Origin: Octopus vulgaris
Lineage: Eukaryota
Direction of reading: 5' to 3'
Assembly (NCBI GenBank): GCA_951406725.2
Contig: OX597835.1
Span: forward strand, 7,378,001 to 7,442,000
DNA length: 64,000 nt
A model generated the notes under the pieces. It did no database searches, was not told where the DNA came from, and saw only the letters and a list, made by a program, of their open reading frames with translations. Both the position numbers and the translations under genes were made by a program. Shown piece by piece: positions 2,386 to 64,000 of this stretch (positions are counted from its first letter, which is position 1; each line of letters opens with the position of its first letter).

Positions 2386-3115
2386 TATATATATATATAA
2401 GTTGTTTGTTTTTAATCGCTTCATCTTGGGTTGCTACAATTATGCTATGTTTCTTTTATTAATTGCCCCTTTTTTAACCAAGCCCAGGATTTTGTACCAC
2501 ATGTGTCTTCAGTGACTCTCCAAAACTGGCCATACAGAGGTTTCTCTTCGATCTGGATGACTTGCTTTCTTTGTATTTCATTCTCGTCCTTTTCTCTTAT
2601 TATGCGCTTCATCACCTGTTCTGTCTTAACTACCTTTAGTAGTTTTTTTTGTGTGTGTTGCTCTGTAAATACTCTATTAGATTTTTTTTACACCTGTACA
2701 TATTCTTTTACTGCTATTAAACATCTTACATCGTTATCTCTCCTCAAGTACAGCCGGTTGATATCAGCTTTTGGATAGTGGGTTCCATACATCATTAAGA
2801 ACTTAGTTTTTTTTGTTAAGTTTCTTTATTTCGTTCTGACCTGACCCTATTATACCAACTAACCTTTTTGGACGGCTATAGAATGTGCCCCAAATAAATA
2901 ATGACAAAATCCATGCTACCAACACAGTCAAATACCAGGACGAAGACAAGCACAAAAGCAACAGAAACGATCAGAGTCGTAAATGCAACGATGGCAACAA
3001 AGCTACGGCATCTACAGGAAATAAACAAAGAGGACAATAGCTTACAAGATTGGTACTACTACCACCAGCAATACAAGCAAATGATAATAATGCTAATGAT
3101 TACTCCAGGTTAGCT

Positions 3116-3720
3116 GTATTTCGTTTGCCATTACGTTCCGAGTTCAAATTCCGCCGAGGTCGACTTTGCCTTTCATCCTTTTGGCGTCGATTAAATAAGT
3201 ACCAGTTACGCACTGGGGTCGATATAATCGACTTAATCCGTTTGTCTGTCCTTGTTTGTCCCCTCTATGTTTAGCCCGTTGTAGGCAATAAAGAAATAAG
3301 AAACGTTAGCACGCCGGGCGAAATGCTTTGCAGTATTTCGTCTGTCTTTACGTTCTGAGTTCAAATTCCGCCGAGGTCGACTTTGCCTTTCATCCTTTCG
3401 GCGTCGATTAAATAAGTACCAGTTACGCCCTGGGGTCGATATAATCGACTTAATCCGTTTTTTCTGTCCTTGTTTGTCCCCTCTATATTTAGCCCGTTGT
3501 AGGCAATAAAGAAATAAGAAACGTTAGCACGCCGGGCGAAATGTTTTGCAATATTTCGTCTGTCTTTACGTTCTGAGTTCAAATTCCCCCGAGGTCAACT
3601 TTGCCTTTCATCCTTTAGGCATCGATAAATTAAGTACCAGTTGCGGACTGGAGTCGATCTAATCGACTGCCCCCCTCCCCCCAGAATTTTCCGATCTTGT
3701 GCCTAGAGTAGAAAAGAATA
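3116..3720 (+). mobile_element. SINE family B, tandem array of about three partial units
   Basis: Repeated gagttcaaattccgccgaggtcgactttgcctttcatcc...aagtaccagtt with ~220-bp period. Confidence 0.85.
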
Positions 3721-3732
3721 TTGATCAAACAA

Positions 3733-3966
3733 TCTATTTCTTTATTAACCACAAGGGGCTAAACACAGAGGGGACAAACAAGGACAGACATAGGTATTAA
3801 GTCGATTACATCGACCCTAGTTCGTAACTGGTACTTAATTTATCGACCCCGAAAAGATGAAAGGCAAAGTCGACCTCGGCGGAATTTGAACTCAGAACGT
3901 AACGGCAGACGAAATACCATTAAGTGTTTCGCCCGGCGTGCTAACATTTCTGCCAGCTCGCCGCCT
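3733..3966 (-). mobile_element. SINE family B, full copy with probable TSD
   Basis: Reverse complement of family B; flanked by ttgatcaaacaa / ttgttcaaacaa. Confidence 0.8.
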
Positions 3967-5522: not shown

Positions 5523-8500
5523 TAGTGTTAAGACTCTTTTAGTTTTGGGGAAGTGAACGATTTCCTGTATCAAAATTCGATGAACAATTACATATAAGTA
5601 AGGAAAATAAATCGTATTTTCAAGTTTTTAAAAGAACACCACCCCCAACTGAAGAAAACATGCAAAATTCTAGGAGGGACGTTCATAAAGCGTACACAAA
5701 CTAAACTTGGTTTAGTGACTTAAGGCAATGCAGAAGACTTATATCACAAATTTCAGCTTTCAAGTTTAGGTGTTATAGAGTTTTTAATTTGTTACTACTT
5801 AGGCCCTACTTTAGGAAATATCCTATTCCATTCCTTTTTATTTCTGTGACTCTAACTATATTGACTGTTTTTCAGAATAGTAAGCTTATTTAAAATAATG
5901 TCTCAAAAGAGAAGTGCTTGTGCCACTCAAGGAAACAGAATAATGTGGACGAAGAATCTCAAGACTGACATAGGAAAAGAAGACAGGTTCCTCTAGAAGA
6001 GCATCCGTTGGAAAACAACTGCAGGATACCAATGAAACTTCAAATTGTCGGTTGCTATCTGTTCCTTGGAGGTACCGTCAAATGAAGGAAAGGAAATTTC
6101 GGAAGGAGTAACATTTTTATGGCAAAAGAAATTAAATTTCCCATATTTATCAATTCAAAATGTACAGAAAAAATTAGAAAAAGTAATGAATATCTACGAT
6201 TATTTTGTGTAAAACGGGGAAAATACGATTCATTGAAATTAATCTTTGACATTACAAAGGAAAACAGCGAATGCCTGTGCAATGAGGATAGAAGGTTATA
6301 TTACCTTCAGATTGAAAGCATGGGACGGGTTGGGTATGCAACTGGAAAGACAAAACTATTCACCCAAAAAACAAAAAAGTGTCCTTAATGCCAACTTCAA
6401 CCAAAGCAACTCCAGTGTTATCGTCCACGTCTGGAGCAGAGACTGAAAGTGAATATCAAGAGTCCGAAAAATCAGATAAAGACTCCACACAAACAAGGAG
6501 GAAGTAGAGCAAAACTGGAACTGCAATCAAGTTAGTAATATCTTCCAAGCTATCAACCCAAAAAGCAGCAAAAGTTTGTTGACGAATATCTCAAGATGGA
6601 ATCTATGTCGAGGGTCCTTCGAAATCTGGTATTTACAGATCAACTATCAAAGAAGCTATTAAACTAAAAAAAAGAAATGAAAAAAAAAACTATATTTAGA
6701 AAACTGGTCATTGCATTTTGATGGTAAACGTATTGATGACCAAGAATACCAAGTGTTAGTTTTCAAGAATGAACAGGGCGATTCCTGAAGTTAAGTTACA
6801 AGCACTCCAATTACCAAAGGGAAAAGCCAATACTGAAAGGAATTACGGCTGTTTTAGATGAATACAATTTATGGAACTGTGCAAAGATGACTGTCGCTGA
6901 TACAACGAGTGTGATCACTGGGAAAAGAAATATCACTGTTATCCAGTTGCAAAGACTATTTGCTCAAAAGGGCTTGAAAGAACCGCAATTTATGGGTTGT
7001 CAGCATCATATCCCAGAGCTTCAAAGTAATTACGAGAAACTCCAGGCTAATTTCAACAATGGTGAAGAAAAAATTACTGAATCAGTAGGATGGCGACATG
7101 ACAGGAAATTCTTATTTCATTTGACCAGAGATTTTCGTTTCTTTGAAGAAACCGGAAAATTTCCTACTGTAAAGTTTCAAAAAAAATACACAACTTAAGT
7201 AATGCAAGATGGAAATCTGTTGCAATACTGGCTCTTTTGGCATTTATTCTTCTACCAGAGAAAAGAGTTTTGCTTCTCAATATTTCTCGATTCATCTCTT
7301 ATAGCTGGACAGATTTTTGGTTTACTGATTAAATGTTAAATGCACATGATTATCAGGAGTTATGTGTTAGTCAGCAAGTTCATAAAAACGCATTGAACTC
7401 AGTAAAAAACTTTTGGAGACGAGCACCTCCCAGAACAAATCAGAGTGCAGAAAGGGCAATCAAGTGCCTTCAAGACCTTTATGATGTTTGTAAAAAGAAG
7501 AAATTTCAGCTCCGATTTATTTTATCTAACAAAACATATTTATTCTATTTATGTTCAAAATTTTGCTAACATTCAGCGCCCTTTTTCTTATAGTTATTCA
7601 AAATTGGAATTATACCTATAAAGTTTAAAATATATATTCTCTTTTACTCTTTTACTTGTTTCAGTCATTTGACTGCGGCCATGCTGGAGCACCGCCTTTA
7701 ATCGAGCAACTTGACCCCGGGTCTTATTCTTTTGTAAGCCCAGTACTTATTCTATCGGTCTCTTTTGCCGAACCGCTAAGTAACGGGGATATAAACACAC
7801 CAGCATCGGTTGTCAAGCAATGCTAGGGGGACAAACACAGACACACAAACACACACACACGCATATATATATATATATATATATACAAATATACGACAGG
7901 CTTCTTTCAGTTTCCGTCTACCAAATAAACTCACAAGGCTTTGGTCGGCCCGAGGCTATAGTAGAAGACACTTGCCCACGGTGCCACGCAGTGGGACTGA
8001 ACCCGGAACCATGTGGTTGGTAAACAAGCTAATTACCACACAGCCACTCCTGCGCCTATTGTTTTTAATTTTGTATATTATAGAATGCTTTTAGTGACCT
8101 CTGTCATAGATTAGCCTAGTTTTTAACCTTTGCATAGAACAATTTCAATTCAGTAATCTTAAAAATGTATGATTACACTTTTATTCTACATCTCTCTTGC
8201 GTTTACAAGGATTTAGGCCTCGGAAATACTGAAGTGTGAATCTCGTGCTACCTAGTAATTATAATTTAAGAAGCCCATAACTCTACTTCAACTAGAAAAC
8301 TGACATTTCAGAGATACTATTTCTGTATTGCATTGCGTCAGCACACCAAGTTTGGTAAAACCTCGAGCAGGGGTTATGAACCCCACTAGAATTTTGCATG
8401 GTTTGGGTCAAAAGTGGTGATTGATGTCTTAAGCTGGGAGAGACGTTTCGTTTTTGCAAATAAAACAAAGTAAAAGTAAATATTAGTTTCCTGACTTATA

Positions 8501-16993: not shown

Positions 16994-18565
16994 TTATTTT
17001 TTTTTTTTTCTTTTTTCTAGTTTCAGCTCAGAGCTGCGGCCATGCTGATGCACCGCCGTTTTGTGCTACACTGTTATTGCGACGAACCTCGTCTAATATG
17101 TGGCACTTGGTGAAGAATGGAGTTTGATACAGCTACTCTCATTTGCACCTCTTGCCGTGAGGTAGGTTCATCTGGGACTCTTGTCAGGAAGATGTCCAGC
17201 TTTGATTTAAAATCCGCTACATCTACTTTGTGCAAGTTCCCCAGACTCTTTGGGAGAATATTAAAAAGCTGTGGGCCCTTGAAACCCAGGCTGTTGCAGA
17301 AGCTGGTCCTGAAGCGTGATGGCATTGCTGAGATCTTTGGCACTATGCAGTGTCGTCCCGTTCTAGCATTGGTGTGGCTTACAATGCCCAAATGTGCCAC
17401 AATTCCTTCCAGGATCTTCCAGACATATATTACTGCATACCTCTCCCGTCTTCTATACATATATTGCTATGCTAAAACATGAACGTTCTGAAAGGCATAT
17501 AAAACTCTTCATAGATCTTAAAATATTCAGGAATTTTTGCATAGACTTAGAATTTGATGCGTGTAAAAACCAGAGCATACAACATCATAATGAGGACGTT
17601 AGACGAAGCAGATCCATTCTGCAACGATTGATCGATGTAGTTATTTTTATTAGGTCATTAGGAATTATCATTTCGGGGTCATTTTGAGTCTGAAAAACCT
17701 AATAATTGTGGAAATAATTGTGAAAGGACTATTATATATTTAATCAGTAAATATGACGAAAACTTGGCAGGCCTTGTAGTTACAGCTTCTGTCTTCTCAG
17801 GTCTCTCAGACAGAATTCAAAATGACTCGATGGATGCAATCTAAAAGGTCATGTTGAATGAAATACAAAATGAACTTAATCAGGCTAAATTCATTGTTGT
17901 TCTTGTTGAGGAAAAATCTGATGTGTCGGCATATTCACAACTGTTAACTGTTTTACGTTATGTTACAGAAGATTGTTACGAAAGAACGATGTATCGGTTT
18001 TAAAGATGTTAGTGCAGATCGATCGGCAGATGTTTTATCTGAAAATGTTTTGAAATGCATTGAAACGTGGAAATGTGAAAACGAATTGATTGCACGAACC
18101 CATTACGGTGCCGCTACAGTGGCAGGACAATAAAATAGGTCACAGTCAAAAGTAAGACAGAAATATGAACGTGCGATCTTTATTCATTGTTGTACTCATA
18201 TCCTAAAACCTTTACCTTACCTTGGTGGTAAAATTTACCAATTTAGTTCGTTCCCAATCATGCTCTGCTATAAAAGAATGCAAGATATATTTTTTCTACA
18301 GTAAATAGATTGAATACATTCTTTTACGAAATCACCGAAAAGGGCTAATGCATTAAATAACGTTGTTAAAAAAAGATCTCCGAAAGCAACAGCAACTAGA
18401 TGGAACTACTCTTCGCGTCTTATTATCACCACAAAAGAAAATAATAATTTCATAATTAGCCTTTCTGAAGACATCATTGAAAATCCTGAAGCATGGGATG
18501 ATACCATCATTAATTCAGAAATTGGATTCTTGCATACTTTTAAAGGGCATTCTTTCGTTTTAAAC
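15842..18565 (+). mobile_element. Degenerate hAT (Tip100/ZMYM1-like) transposon
   Basis: TTF-type zinc finger (RQFQ...KKKWLTGSATLNKLFCWPCVFF...W), KHERSERH, RSILQRLIDVVIF, FRGH, IQND, EKSDVS..QL, FIHCCTHIL, ATRWN; many frameshifts and stops. Confidence 0.85.
17010..17460 (-). mobile_element. CR1-group LINE 3' end (ORF2 C-terminus + 3' UTR) inserted in the hAT element
   Basis: RRRERYAVIYVWKIL...FKGPQLFNILPK...FKSKLDIFLTRVPDEP...SNSILHQ; interrupts the hAT ORF. Confidence 0.85.
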
Positions 18566-19432: not shown

Positions 19433-19808
19433 TCACACACACACACACACCCACACTCACATACGCACGCACACATATATATTCATATATATGGATGTGT
19501 ATATAAGTATATATATATATATGTATATCTATATATATATATGTATATCTATAGACATATAAGTATATATATATATATATATATATATAACAATAATAAA
19601 TCTCTGAGCGAGATATAAACAGTAACTGCTCTATAACATAAGGGGGATCAGCCATCTGAATGTGGCTAGGGACAGGGCGGGGTGGTGGGGGTGTTACTGA
19701 TGCATTTAGCCCCAGGCGATCATCGACGTCACCAGAAGGGCCGACACCATCTCGGTGTCCTTGCCAGCCTGCAAAGGGAGATCAGCCTCCCGAAGATACG
19801 GATACTAC

Positions 19809-19849
19809 ATACGGACCGATTTCGAGGTATTTGCCTCTTATCAACGCAT
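19809..19849 (-). ncRNA. Type I hammerhead ribozyme, U3-A8 variant (inverted copy)
   Basis: atgcg-TTGATAA-gagg caaata cctc-GAAA-tcgg-TC-cgtat. Confidence 0.7.
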
Positions 19850-19954
19850 GGTAAGCACCGTTCTTCGTTGAGGGACCCCCTCTACAGGCTGGATATATAA
19901 GGATTTTCACAGTAACCACAGTCACTGATGTAGAAAAACCCAACGGTGCTTACC

Positions 19955-19995
19955 ATGCGTTGATAAGAGGCAAATACCTCGAAACCGGTCCGTAT
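19955..19995 (+). ncRNA. Type I hammerhead ribozyme, U3-A8 variant
   Basis: Stem I atgcg/cgtat, core TTGATAA, stem II gagg-caaata-cctc, GAAA, palindromic stem III accggt, predicted GUC cleavage after 19990. Confidence 0.78.
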
Positions 19996-20305
19996 GTAGT
20001 ATCCGTATCTTCGGGGAGGCTGATCTCCCTTTGCAGGCTGGCAAGGACACCGAGATGGTTTCGGCCCTTCTGGTGACGTCGATGATCGCCTGGGGCTAAA
20101 TGCATCAGTAACACCCCCACCACTCCGCCCTGTCCCTAGCCACATTCAGATGGCTGATCCCCCTTATGTTATAGAGCAGTTACTGTTTATATTGTTTTAT
20201 TATTGTTGTCGAACGGTTTTTCTACATCAGTGACTGTGGTTACTGTGAAAATCCTTATATATCCAGCCTGTAGAGGGAGTCCCTCAACGAAGAACGGTGC
20301 TTACC

Positions 20306-20346
20306 ATGCGTTGATAAGAGGCAAATACCTCGAAACCGGTCCGTAT
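20306..20346 (+). ncRNA. Type I hammerhead ribozyme, U3-A8 variant
   Basis: Identical to 19955-19995; nested in a long hairpin 20263-20392; predicted cleavage after 20341. Confidence 0.78.
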
Positions 20347-20549
20347 GTAGTATCCGTATCTTCGGGGAGGCTGATCTCCCTTTGCAGGCTGGCAAGGACA
20401 CCGAGATGGTGTCGGCCCTTCTGCTGACGTCGATGATCGCCTGGGGCTAAATGCATCAGTAACACCCCCACCACCCCGCCCTGTCCTTAGCCACATTCAG
20501 ATGGCTGATCCCCTTATGTTATATATATATCTATCTATCTATCTATCTA

Positions 20550-20592
<43 letters not shown>

Positions 20593-20892
20593 ATATATAT
20601 ATATATATATATACAAAAAGGGTGAAATATAATTAATTTAATAAAATTAATAAATTTCACCTAGTAGACTTTTCGGTATAGAAAAGACCATATTTGGTAA
20701 GAATTATATTAATTATAATAAAGGCTTAATTGCAACAAGTTGCTCAAAACCACATACCGAAGAAAGTTAGAAATAGTAGCCGAACAGATCACTATTTCTC
20801 CTACTAATAAAAAAGTCTCCACAAACAAACAGAATTTGTAACCCGTATATGGTAAAAAGAAAGAAAATAACGAAATCCCAGCCTATTGGATT

Positions 20893-21128: not shown

Positions 21129-21201
21129 TTTCGCAGATTTATTGTAAGGGAGTAAAAGTATTCAATATATACTTTTACTCCCTTACAATAAATCTGCGAA
21201 A
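21129..21201. repeat. Perfect inverted repeat (~33-bp arms)
   Basis: tttcgcagatttattgtaagggagtaaaagtat / atacttttactcccttacaataaatctgcgaaa. Confidence 0.9.
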
Positions 21202-21216
21202 CCCTTTATTTTTAAT

Positions 21217-21247
<31 letters not shown>

Positions 21248-21287
21248 TGAGCAAGTTGGTGTGTGAAAGCACGTGGTTGGATATATA

Positions 21288-21513
21288 AAAAATAGAAAAG
21301 ACTGAAAAAACTACAGAAGGCTTGTTTTATAAGGTTAAAGAATATATTTAAGTTGTTATGTTAGAAGAATGTTATAAAATTTTGTATATAGTAACATAGT
21401 TTTTGGAGAAATTACCGGTTTCGTGTTAACTTTTCAAAATTCTTCTAACATAACAACTTAAATATATTCTTTAACCTTATAAAACAACCTTCTGTAGTTT
21501 TTTCAGTCTTTTC

Positions 21514-21519
<6 letters not shown>
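21288..21519. repeat. Inverted repeat (~80-bp arms) in (TA)n
   Basis: aaaatagaaaagactg...gttagaagaat vs attcttctaac...cagtcttttctatttt. Confidence 0.9.
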
Positions 21520-21592
<73 letters not shown>

Positions 21593-24002: not shown

Positions 24003-25692
<1,690 letters not shown>

Positions 25693-28120: not shown

Positions 28121-28321
28121 TTTTCTTACTTTATTGCTTTGTGTTACTATGTGTGATGATGAAACTGGTATGTCATAAAGACAAAAGTATTTGTCATTCT
28201 GTCATTTAAATCCCCAACCTGATTACCATACATCATTCTTGAGGATCCATTTTAATTCATATCCCCATTAATCTGCTTTTAAACATCCACGATCTCACTC
28301 TCTATCCACTTTAATGTATCC

Positions 28322-28686
28322 TATTTGTTTACTACCCACAAGAGGCTAAACACAGAGAGGACAAACAAGGACAGACAAACGGATTAAGTCGATTATATCG
28401 ACCTCAGTACGTAACTGGTACTTATTTAATCGATCCCGAAAGGAGGAAAGGCACAGTCGACCTCGGCGGAATTTGAACTCAGAACGTAACGGCAGACGAA
28501 ATACGCCCAGCGTGCTAACGTTTCTGCCAACTCGCCGCCTGTTTTAGAGTACAGCAGGGGTCACCACCACCCCCTACCGGAGCCTCGTGGAACTTTTTGA
28601 TGTTTTCGCTCAATAAACACGCACAACGCCTGATCTGGGAATCGACCGCGAGTCCGCTGCCCTGACCACTGGGCCATTGCGCTTCC
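28322..28686 (-). mobile_element. Chimeric SINE (family C head + family B) within one TSD
   Basis: C head ~28541-28686 joined to B 28322-28540; flanking direct repeat actttaatgtatcc at 28308-28321 and 28687-28700. Confidence 0.8.
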
Positions 28687-28964
28687 ACTTTAATGTATCC
28701 AAGATTACATTATTAATCTGCTTTAAAACTTCTACGGTCACCATGTCTTCTTTACTCTTAAAGAGAGCAGCGCTCGAGATTCGCTCGAGATTCACTCAGA
28801 TATAGAACGGTTCAGTAGGATTGTCTGCTCACACCGAATCTTTACCTCTTACTGACTTCAAATCCTAATCCAGGTAGACTTTTGTTTGCAAGATTAAATG
28901 AGTAAATACACGAATAAATAAATTGGTTAACTAATTCGTTAATTAATACATACTGTTTTACTGT

Positions 28965-29358
28965 TTACTGTTTTACTTGTTTCAGTCATTTGACTGCGGC
29001 CATGCTGGAGCACCGCCTTTAGTCGATCAAATCGACCCGGGACTTATTCTTTGTAAGCCCAGTACTTATTCTATCGGTCTCTTTTGGCGAACCGCTAAGT
29101 GACGGGGACGTAAACACACCAGCATCGGTTGTCAAGCAATGCTAGGGGGACAAACACAGACACACAAATCCACACACACACATATATATATATACATATA
29201 TACGGCAAGCTTCTTTCAGTTTCCGTCTACCAAATCCACTCACAATGCATTGGTCGGCCCGGGGCTATAGCAGAAGACACTTGCCCAAGATGCCACGCAG
29301 TGGGACTGAACCCGGAACCATGTGGTTGGTTAGCAAGCTACTTACCACACAGCCACTC
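28965..29358 (-). mobile_element. SINE family A
   Basis: Near-full copy. Confidence 0.85.
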
Positions 29359-37198: not shown

Positions 37199-37281
37199 AA
37201 TATATATATGAGCATGGTTAGATATGCAACTATATGTATGAGAATATATATATATAAAACATACAGATCTTCACATATATA

Positions 37282-37693
37282 GGCGCAGGAGTGGCTGTGT
37301 GGTAAATAGCTTGCTAACCAATCACATGGTTCCGGGTTAAGTCCCACTGCGTGGAATCTTGGGCAAGTGTCTTCTGCTATAGCCCCGGGCCGACCAATGC
37401 CTTGTGAGTGGATTTGGTAGACGGAAACTGAAAGAAGCTCGTCGTATATATGTATATATATATATATATGCGTGTGTGCGTTTGTGCGTCTGTGTTTGTC
37501 CCCCAAGCATTGCTTGACAACCGATGCTGGTGTGTTTACGTCCCCGTCACTTAGCGGTTCGGCAAAAGAGACCGATAGAATAAGTACTGGGCTTACAAAG
37601 AATAAGTCCTGGGGTCGATTTGCTCGACTAAAGGCGGTGCTCCAGCATGGCCGCAGTCAAATGACTGAAACAAGTAAAAGAGTAAAAAGAGTA
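37282..37693 (+). mobile_element. SINE family A, full length
   Basis: Head to gtaaaagag tail. Confidence 0.9.
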
Positions 37694-38067
37694 AGGAGTA
37701 TATATACATACATACAAAAATACACTGTTGTTGATGTTAAAATAAACGGAATAAGGACATGCATACATGCACAGACGCATCTTCAAATGTCCGCATGTGT
37801 GAGTCTGGTTTCCTGTCTGCAGATAAGTATGTTTGTATCGAAACCGATCGAGCAAACATCCTACCGCCAGGAGCGCTCAGTCTGAAGGTGTAACTATATA
37901 TGCAGGCAATATATTAAAAAGGGGGAAAAAAAAAAAAAGAAAAAGAAAAAGAAAATGGTATGCAAATATGTAAGGAATTGAAGCTGAAATTTATAGCCAT
38001 TTGAAGGAGCCAAACATGCATGGCAGAAAATCAAACAAACAAAACAAACACACGTTTTACATATTTA

Positions 38068-40330: not shown

Positions 40331-40459
40331 TATATAATACACTCAGTACACACGCACAGCACATATAGACATTATCACGCACACACACACACACATATAT
40401 ATATATACATATATATACATAGTCGAATAATAAAAAGAAAGTTCTTGGTACTGTATTTA

Positions 40460-40864
40460 TTTTTTACTTGTTTCAGTCATTTTGACTGCGGCCATGCTGG
40501 AGCACCGCCTTTAATCGAGCAACTCGACCCCCGGGGCTTATTCTTTGTAAGCCGCAGTACTTATTCTATCGGTCTCTTTTGCCGAACCGCCAAGTGACGG
40601 GGACATAAACACACCAGCATCGGTTGTCAAGCAATGCTGGGGGGAGGGGCAAACGCAGACAAACAAACATACACGCACATACATATATATATACATATGC
40701 ACGACGGGCTTCTTTCAGTTTCCGTCTACCAAATCCACTCACAAGGCTTTGGTCGGCCCGAGGCTATAGTAGAAGACACCTGCCCAAGGTGCCACGCAGT
40801 GGGACTGAACCCGGAACCATGTAGTTTGTTAGCAAGCTACTTACCACACAGCCACTCCTGCGCC
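40460..40864 (-). mobile_element. SINE family A, full length
   Basis: Family A. Confidence 0.9.
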
Positions 40865-41134
40865 TACGATATATATTATATATATGTATTATATATTTGA
40901 AAAAATGAACAGAGATGTCTTTTTGGTAGGGATAATATTTATTTTAATCATGTTTACAGTCATTGATTCTGCAATGAGTTTCAAGCTTCAAGTATCCGTT
41001 TTCAAACTGAAAAAATATGATTTATTGGTTGCTTAAATAGCAGAAAATTTAGATAGCAAAGTGAATGTATATATATATATATAAATATATATATACAAGA
41101 GTTATACGTTCTTGTCCATGTTGTATTTTTCTAC

Positions 41135-56880: not shown

Positions 56881-56967
56881 CACTGAATCTAAGTACTGAC
56901 GGTAAATACCGGCAAACCCCTACCGGTCACGTATATCCGCCTCAAACACTTTTCAGATTACATCAAT

Positions 56968-57383
56968 AGTCGCAGGAGTGGCTGTGTGGTAAGTAGCTTG
57001 TTAACCAACTACATGGTTCCGGGTTCAGTCCCACTGCGTGGCATCTTGGGCAAGTGTCTTCTGCTATAGCCCCGGGCCGACCAATGCCTTGTGAGTGGAT
57101 TTGGTAGACGGAAACTGAAAGAAGCCTGTCGTATATATGTATATATATATATATATATGTGTATGTGTGTGTTTGTGTGTCTGTGTTTGTCCCCCTAGCA
57201 TTGCTTGACAACCGATGTTGGTGTGTTTACGTCCCCGTCACTTAGCGGTTCGGCAAAAGAGACCGATAGAATAAGTGCTGGGCTTACAAAGAATAAGTCC
57301 CGGGGTCGATTTGTTCGACTAAAGGCGGTGCTTCAGCATGGCCGCAGTCAAAATGACTGAAACAAGTAAAAGAGTAAAAGAGT
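56968..57383 (+). mobile_element. SINE family A, full length
   Basis: Family A. Confidence 0.9.
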
Positions 57384-62756: not shown

Positions 62757-63764
62757 TTTAGATCCTTGGCGTTACATGATTATAATCTGAGTTTTCATAC
62801 TTTTGCGATCCTTTCAATTCACATGCAGACGACAGCTCTGACTTGTTATCGAGATCCATCAGCGAATCTTTCGCGTTTTCAATTTCTTCAGTTTCTGCTC
62901 GAATTGAATGCATAATCAGCATAATGATGTAGTTTTATATGCTAATCAATGGCATGTAATTAATTTCCGCCATGAATCAATAAATAAAGAGTTATCAGCT
63001 TTTAAAGTTTGCAAATTTTGGTTAGTTTAAGGCAATCGTAAGCCATATACAAATGTAAGCCTGTTTACATAGTAACAAGACAAATATGCTTGTGCCCATT
63101 AGTTGAGTGTACTCCTGTCGAGAGATGTGCTAAAAATAACAGCCAAATAGGCCTTAAATCACGCAATCCTACAATTTCTTTTGTTTATTTTTGCATAATC
63201 GTGTGAATTTCCGACTGCAGAATACAAATTCACAAAAATTTTCGGAAAATTTCAAAGAATTAAAAAATTATGAGGGATTATATGTCGTGCGTAAAGCAGA
63301 AGTTAATTGATTTACAGTTTGATGTTAAAACGCGTCACGCACAAAACGACAACTTCCAAATCCTGTTTTCTGACCGGACGAAAATAATCAAACTTTAAAC
63401 CTCTGTAACTTAAAATAAAAAAAAAAATTCCGGAAAAAGTGAAATATCTGCTGAGATTCCTCTCGGAAAACTGCGTCAATGCACCAAATTTTAAAATTTT
63501 CAATAAACTTTGAAATTTTCACAGATGCAGCAAAACACAAAAATCTCGATCCGCTTATCTTACACTAGCAGTAATGCAAAGCTCGGATAAAATGCCGTTA
63601 AGCGCTTGGCTCGCCGTGCTAACGTTTTTACGAGCTTGCAGTCTTGATATAATAAAATATTGGCTTCTAAATTTTTGGCACAACGCCAGCAAGCCCGGGG
63701 AACAGGTACGTCGAATACCAGCTGCCAGCTACCGCCCTTTGGTATATTAAAAATTTGAAAATAT

Positions 63765-63990
63765 TTATTTCTTTATTGTCCACAAGGGGCTAAACATAGA
63801 GTGGACAAACAAGGACAGCCGAAGGAATTAAGTCGATTAGATCGGTCACAGTGCGTAACTGGTACTTATTTAATCGATTCCGAAAGGATGAAAGGCAAAG
63901 TCGACCTCGGCGGATTTGAACTCAGAACGTAAAGACAGACGAAATATTTCGCTAAATATTTCGCTCAGGGTGCTAAATTATCTTATTCCT
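63765..63990 (-). mobile_element. SINE family B
   Basis: Family B reverse complement; additional head fragments at 63585-63740. Confidence 0.8.
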
Positions 63991-64000
63991 TTATTGCCCA

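Follow-up and report, generated by a model that had tools for sequence, protein, structure and literature searches.

An insertion of a large family of non-coding tandem repeats of ~360 nt was identified in the 64,000-nt stretch of Octopus vulgaris DNA analyzed here (the window). Its units carry predicted hammerhead ribozymes, and we consider it probable that the family is mobilized in trans by a Penelope-like element (PLE) from an RNA that is likely circular; the cleavage, ligation, expression, and enzyme in this reading are taken by analogy from known systems.

Self-BLAST and inspection of the sequence resolved positions 19589-20523 of the window as a single back-to-back insertion inside (TA)n-type repeats, whose plus arm (19942-20523) comprises 1.6 units and whose minus arm (19589-19940) comprises about one; the two arms meet 5' to 5'. 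This agrees with a preliminary description of the locus, which had reported a non-coding unit in ~1.6 plus copies and one inverted copy with three hammerheads in (TA)n; self-BLAST and the hammerhead scan confirmed that layout. The copies are 97.8-98.1% identical across their shared parts (self-BLAST), and the inverted one (19589-19940) is circularly permuted relative to the plus copies. The plus arm ends at a short 3' site, while the minus arm has an extra 43-nt tail (19589-19631). Both flanks, inspected for a target site duplication of more than 4 bp, consist of (TA)n. The features of the window are as follows.

About 19475..19589, no strand: (TA)n-type target, left flank (repeat scan and sequence).
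19589..19940, minus strand: inverted arm of about one unit (352 nt), its end being the long 3' site (self-BLAST, hammerhead scan, and end scoring; L001, long plus short).
19589..19631, minus strand: 43-nt PLE-type tail, from the short to the long 3' site (sequence, locus comparison, and end scoring).
19808..19850, minus strand: type I hammerhead with U3-A8 core and stem III AUCGGU, predicted cut after 19814 (hammerhead scan, core start 19844 on the minus strand).
19941..19941, no strand: 5'-to-5' arm junction with one filler base (junction analysis).
19942..20292, plus strand: unit A, 351 nt, in a family with units of 352-362 nt (self-BLAST and unit lengths).
19954..19996, plus strand: type I hammerhead 1, with stem I of 6 bp, UUGAUAA, stem II of 4 bp, GAA, ACCGGU, and C17; predicted cut after 19990 (scan, core start 19960).
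20193..20196, plus strand: private lesion in which 4 nt stand in place of 13 nt of the internal tail hairpin, net -9 (comparison with the inverted arm and other loci).
19991..20341, plus strand: predicted cleavage-to-cleavage monomer (folding).
20293..20523, plus strand: unit B, 231 nt, its end being the short 3' site, running into (TA)n (self-BLAST and end scoring).
20305..20347, plus strand: type I hammerhead 2, predicted cut after 20341 (scan, core start 20311).
About 20520..20613, no strand: (TA)n/(TATC)n right flank (repeat scan).
1914-2396, 7630-8059, 28959-29358, 37275-37722, 40381-40876, and 56964-57383: dispersed SINE-like repeats.
3110-3951, 24730-25452, 28312-28559, and 63759-63998: dispersed SINE-like repeats.

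The plus arm had been read as yielding an exact 351-nt monomer. That length does not represent the family: unit A is a damaged ~360-nt unit, and among 72 distinct full units one is 351 nt long and the other 71 are 352-362 nt, with a mode of 360 nt.

Elsewhere in the window, positions 21207-21592 hold a second small back-to-back (TA)n insertion of a different element that by eye shows the same end pattern, one arm having a ~33-nt extra tail and the other lacking it. A hammerhead-like motif with a UUGAAAA core and a weak stem II lies on the minus strand near 21400-21435 (GAAACCGGUA), and a 73-nt near-perfect palindrome (21129-21201) adjoins the second insertion. The SINE-like dispersed repeats fall into two families (~400 nt and ~190-220 nt) with many copies in the window, and a minus-strand fragment at 17074-17482 resembles what we take to be the C-terminal part of a LINE-type ORF2.

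The three type I hammerheads are the sole matches in a strict scan of both strands of the whole 64 kb. Stem I, given earlier as atgcg/cgtat, is present and actually comprises 6 bp (CAUGCG/CGUAUG), continuing beyond a bulge as a long rod; the palindromic stem III ascribed to every copy is found in the plus copies (ACCGGU) and fails in the inverted one (AUCGGU). Loop 2 (CAAAUA) and the stem I bulge are, we assume, like those of a canonical Schistosoma hammerhead. Across 34 representatives of the family, the type I core positions G5, A6, A9, G12, A13, A14, A15.1, U16.1, and C17 are invariant. The 3-8 column shows CG in 18, UA in 10, UG in 5, and an unpaired state in 1, and with positions 3 and 8 thus paired in 33 of 34, the suggestion that U3-A8 is a real compensation holds. 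The stems are conserved with compensatory changes in the same representatives, as a family consensus had been expected to keep them: 95% of the cells in helices I-III are paired and 12 of 19 pairs have double changes, a covariation score reached by none of 500 shuffles, and slid controls were paired in 23-50%. The repeated restoration of the 3-8 pair and of the stem III palindrome implies, at the level of sequence comparison, selection on the predicted cleavage.

A comparison with Rfam, also proposed in the preliminary description, turned out negative: the hammerhead models gave no match at the gathering threshold or by E-value, and all Rfam matches were AT-repeat or hairpin noise outside the unit. 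As a subfamily with a canonical core likewise had no match, Rfam is insensitive to this form of the hammerhead.

Folding predictions gave the monomer at 19991-20341 an MFE of -122.2 kcal/mol (z -4.1) with its ends joined via stem I, and in the ensemble computed for 19930-20400 each plus copy formed its stems I and II at probability 0.77-1.0. A constrained double hammerhead was 4.5 kcal/mol better than two monomeric ones; since the folding model assigns no energy to the core, both constrained folds are well above the free ensemble. All of 19 representative units folded as circles were better than shuffles (z -2.6 to -6.4), and double changes were seen in 26 of 105 consensus pairs, the structure being taken from the same alignment.

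Genome-wide, the family proves to be both large and old. When the whole assembly (2.8 Gb, 227 contigs) was searched at the DNA level with the unit, 1,738 candidates emerged, 40 of which were scored, and a 26-nt motif and the tail motif occurred 4,405 and 2,029 times, respectively, against 0 for controls. The copy-number check called for earlier, made with four patterns, found at least 4,835 hammerhead motifs, with tandem units present; 68% were C3-G8 (3,283, with U4 or C4) and 17% U3-A8 (824), the rest being U3.G8 (643) and C3.A8 (85), all of which are lower bounds from non-independent copies. The U3-A8 pattern had 3 matches in the reversed control, so the motif is not due to chance, and ~23 of the 85 C3.A8 motifs form a real subfamily. 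Subfamilies diverge to ~70% identity, and those with a measurable period retain the 352-362-nt unit. The element had been called young and likely to be missed by CUGANGA searches: youth applies to the subfamily and not to the whole lineage, and although this branch would escape such searches, the family would not, as 3,283 of 4,835 motifs are C3-G8 under a pattern that also admits C4 cores.

In a tree of 86 units from 53 insertions, a C3.A8 group and a C3-G8 group form a clade with 100/100 support among U3-A8 units, and a U3.G8 unit is sister to a C3(C4)-G8 group. The tree is midpoint-rooted, from which we infer the direction of the 3-8 switches; its topology suggests that the pair switched more than once via single-change states.

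Several loci stood out during the survey. A young and abundant retrozyme subfamily (L161, L106, L115, L178, and L199) has a U4C core (CCGAYGA) and the longest arrays seen; the U4C change is reported to reduce hammerhead activity in vitro (PMC3088659). At L128-L133 (G000:C1:11168449-11169070), the 3' 95 nt of the unit and a (TA)n stretch make up a 119-nt tandem array, an apparent birth of a minisatellite from the element. A different hammerhead-bearing repeat (L069:15-119) with a U3-A8 core and stem III ACAUGU is weakly like the unit profile (E 1.7e-4).

The properties of the unit are those of a retrozyme. Its GC content is 48.7%, below the 50% that bounds the class, its ATG opens a frame of just 30 codons, and the monomer is predicted by folding to be highly self-paired. 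The units fall within the class range of 150-450 nt, each has a complete type I hammerhead, and they stand in tandem in up to 9+3 units. The 30-codon frame over the tail was also considered as an ORF remnant and this was rejected, since no frame longer than 167 aa was found at any of 150 matches scored of 5,267 candidates. In a related subfamily, one looped contig of 364 nt is equally consistent with tandem DNA, and no matching contig is recorded as RNA.

At the same time, partial tandems with an inverted 5'-truncated copy at AT-rich or (TA)n targets are the marks of PLE mobilization. No PLE ORF adjoins the unit in searches of the window and 170 loci, some of them overlapping, with two PLE proteins of this genome. 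PLE ORF matches lie near L007, L008, L023/L029, L031, L102/L103/L124, L144, L169, and L200, and all are separate insertions, past the 3' end of the unit itself or on the opposite strand; the copies examined thus lack the RT plus GIY-YIG ORF between pseudo-LTRs (pLTRs) that defines an autonomous PLE. As no copy examined adjoins such an ORF, we classify the element as a non-LTR retrozyme, i.e. a non-autonomous PLE. The preliminary description had named a retrozyme or a non-autonomous Penelope partner, which is supported, the two having been proposed to be one thing (PMC7229834; bioRxiv 10.64898/2026.07.22.740005), and its concern that the copies could be ordinary pLTRs beside a Penelope ORF is answered. 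A version of that concern, in which truncated pLTRs of an autonomous PLE were expanded locally as a minisatellite, is in our judgment highly implausible. Hammerheads of PLEs in animal genomes do occur mostly in truncated copies (PMC4209133) and PLE ORF fragments are present near some copies, but these are the separate insertions noted above, in all subfamilies examined the sequence upstream of the ribozyme is again the unit, and back-to-back multi-unit arms with fixed ends are unlike a minisatellite.

The genome has many intact RT-GIY-YIG elements. Candidates for a partner were sought with a GIY-YIG query (6,136 candidates) and a divergent endonuclease query (17,019), 150 of each being scored. 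Among the resulting 70 GIY-YIG-bearing loci, all of Neptune-type families as the queries were Neptune-type proteins only, no autonomous PLE shared sequence with the unit apart from separate nearby unit insertions. A 781-aa protein has a C-x4-C-x2-C linker, which points to a putative Neptune type by the linker criterion given in PMC8557442. The intact two-ORF Neptune-type family at L081-L090 combines a 781-aa RT-EN frame with 3' UTR hammerheads whose cores are U3-A8, and that core is thus common among the PLEs of this genome; some autonomous PLEs here bear UUGAUAA hammerheads of their own. A very young autonomous PLE (L211-L242, e.g. G000:C1:27840000-27849900) has ORF1 and a 775-aa RT-GIY-YIG frame in 4.27-kb tandems; the 150 scored matches of 17,019 candidates were all 100% identical over 103 aa, and its minimal hammerhead has a C4 core (CCGAAGA).

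The strongest regularity concerns the ends of the insertions. Arms terminate at either of two fixed 3' sites, 43-46 nt apart, the interval between them being the PLE tail. We took all insertions under the first 100 matches of the 26-nt motif in genome order, a set of 51 on contig C1 restricted to the subfamilies that match this motif. Two arms were present in 32 of the 51, and all 32 paired one short with one long end, an outcome with a chance of 2^-32 if ends were chosen independently; the 19 single-arm insertions had 10 short and 9 long ends. Two further selected sets, one of them found through the tail motif and thereby favoring long ends, had mixed ends in 31 of 33 two-arm insertions. Over all 117 insertions examined, the rule held for 63 of 65 two-arm cases, the exceptions being L016 (short/short) and L045 (long/long). 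Duplicate views (L013, L029, L020, and overlapping loci) and one neighboring arm in L098 were left out of the counts. Mixed ends also characterized six of six back-to-back pairs of the very young autonomous PLE, which had 16 short and 14 long ends over 30 loci.

The lengths of the arms bear on how the inverted arm arises. In a hand count of 27 insertions, the short-ended arm reached further 5' in 17 and the long-ended in 9, and the two were equal in 1; as either arm may be longer, neither is copied from the other and both are probably RNA-templated. The inverted arm could instead arise as has been suggested for the Penelope elements of rotifers, by fold-back or self-priming that uses the first cDNA or an antisense template. 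Self-priming from palindromic junctions is argued for in PMC3846280, one of our 27 junctions (L093) is a perfect palindrome, and a long-site cDNA folding back would likewise yield one long and one short end. The mechanism requires, however, that the long-ended arm contain the short-ended one, contrary to the 17 of 27 insertions, and junctions are mostly blunt with overlaps chiefly of 0-1 nt and no microhomology excess. The arm lengths largely refute fold-back, unless long-ended arms were trimmed afterwards, and we regard it as improbable. Joining of the arms guided by microhomology was rejected for the same lack of excess at the junctions, where negative overlaps are partly alignment artifacts and L098 is mis-paired with an adjoining insertion. 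L100 and L102 are independent insertions whose arms meet at an identical junction (4-nt overlap), the short end of one corresponding to the long end of the other.

These patterns are most simply explained if a PLE protein primes twice at the target, copying a continuous template of identical units, for which a circle is the simplest form. A tandem copy would be transcribed, two hammerheads would cut, probably as a double hammerhead, and the monomer would be ligated to a circle, a step demonstrated for coral, mussel, and axolotl retrozymes (PMC7229834). An RT/GIY-YIG protein, probably a Neptune-type dimer, may then cut both (TA)n strands; reverse transcription would start at the short site from one DNA end and at the long site from the other, and the two resulting cDNAs, of variable length and each running up to nine turns through the ribozyme site, would be joined nearly blunt at their ends. 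With a single successful priming, a one-arm insertion would result. In vitro work on PLEs shows two RT start sites that define the tail and cutting and extension of both strands, with a dimer predicted (PMC11167929). More specifically, and only tentatively, we propose that PLE integration is target-primed twice: one protein dimer would hold the two RT start sites of the same RNA, each serving one of the cut strands, and on the 360-nt circle of this retrozyme each RT would roll for up to nine turns independently of the other. If true, this would explain the tail, the inversion, and the tandem arrays together and make retrozyme circles true templates of PLE transposition. The anole PLE, the one such element assayed in vitro, argues against strand-specific priming, as use of the start sites is equal between strands in vitro, and against the circle, as hammerhead cleavage is dispensable and unprocessed RNA is the main substrate (PMC11167929); in vitro cleavage was seen for one of nine Xenopus retrozyme dimers (bioRxiv 10.64898/2026.07.22.740005).

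Arms read straight through the predicted cleavage site, with arrays of up to 12 near-identical units, and 5' ends do not pile up there (3 of 71 passages end within 5 nt). A linear cleaved monomer as the template was rejected for this lack of excess 5' ends at the predicted cut. The same element and double priming could, however, act on uncleaved linear multimeric RNA, or on a monomer with seamless template jumps, the ribozyme being slow or trimming and no circle forming. The read-through is equally compatible with uncleaved RNA and a circle, unprocessed RNA serves as the chief substrate for the anole PLE (PMC11167929), and weakened hammerhead cores have been amplified: the U3.G8 (643 motifs) and C3.A8 subfamilies imply that fast cleavage is not strictly required. 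Yet 56 of 78 arms reach less than 360 nt from the anchor, so that arms of nine units need regenerating, unit-specific variants in phase between the arms were not seen in the multi-unit loci inspected, and the restored 3-8 pair and stem III palindrome imply selection on cleavage. We find this template rather unlikely.

The arrays themselves are made of single variants. The 10 full units of L161, which lie on both strands, show 0 substitutions among them and are set apart from the nearest locus by 7 fixed differences; the arms of this locus comprise nine and three units, the short-ended one being the longer. In the tree, L161, L184, and L023 each have their units gathered in a starred clade of their own, the arms of an insertion sharing one variant; within-locus distances were computed without one chimeric outer unit of L178. 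No unit-specific variants in phase between the two arms were seen in the multi-unit loci inspected. Two RNAs from one source locus may also have served as templates, and array homogeneity could stem partly from assembly polishing or gene conversion.

Much of this is already in print: U3-A8 cores, mollusc retrozymes of similar size, the link between retrozymes and PLEs, and the tail at one end. Our search of the open-access literature found no paper on a cephalopod retrozyme, and none that states a strict one-each end rule or reports PLE tails on a retrozyme. What is new concerns the mechanism, namely the paired-end rule and the single-variant arrays; the element itself extends a known class, the non-LTR retrozyme or non-autonomous PLE, to another genome, and its value is as a test system. 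Like the retrozymes of coral, mussel, and axolotl (Cervera and de la Pena 2020, PMC7229834; Li et al. 2026, bioRxiv 10.64898/2026.07.22.740005), it consists of tandem non-coding units of a few hundred nucleotides with one type I hammerhead each, GC below 50%, a highly self-paired monomer, and proposed PLE-driven mobility. The mussel retrozymes are 350-390 nt long and form circRNA (PMC7229834), whereas the circle is predicted here, and relative to the accounts of those elements, here the retrozyme itself is seen to have the PLE tail, inverted arms, and (TA)n targeting. While 21 of 57 Xenopus retrozyme families are described as having an autonomous pLTR match, none was found for our unit among the 70 PLE loci.

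With EN+ PLEs of Neptune type (Craig et al. 2021, PMC8557442; Frangieh et al. 2024, PMC11167929; Arkhipova et al. 2013, PMC3846280) the family shares partial tandems, an inverted 5'-truncated copy, a tail at one end, a microsatellite target, and a hammerhead upstream of the RT start sites. It differs in lacking an ORF and in a tail of 43-46 nt compared with the 30-40 nt reported; the tail is there said to be at one end "often" or "optionally", in contrast to one each in 63 of 65 cases here. Non-autonomous Chlamys PLEs such as MRC1 likewise form pLTRs and head-to-tail multicopy insertions, but as described in PMC8557442 they are without canonical hammerheads and their 3' ends are generally similar to those of the autonomous partner, unlike our retrozyme. 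The compensated core is the same as in known U3-A8 hammerheads (Perreault et al. 2011, PMC3088659; the Schistosoma Cercyon PLE, PMC4209133), which have about 1,300 matches in Schistosoma and are called active in vitro in those papers; the helices here have canonical (6/4/short palindrome) and not min-HHR size, and a single family tree contains all four 3-8 states. The family also preserves a record of how a core pair shifted between C-G, U.G, U-A, and C.A, together with copy numbers, which lets cleavage rate be compared with transposition success. The origin of the tandem and inverted structures of PLEs and of their microsatellite bias is named as an open problem in PMC8557442, and the steps after priming are left unvalidated in PMC11167929; to these, the one-each rule, the independent arm lengths, and the single-variant arrays add sharp predictions on PLE integration that are testable with a 360-nt RNA and an intact PLE protein from the same genome.
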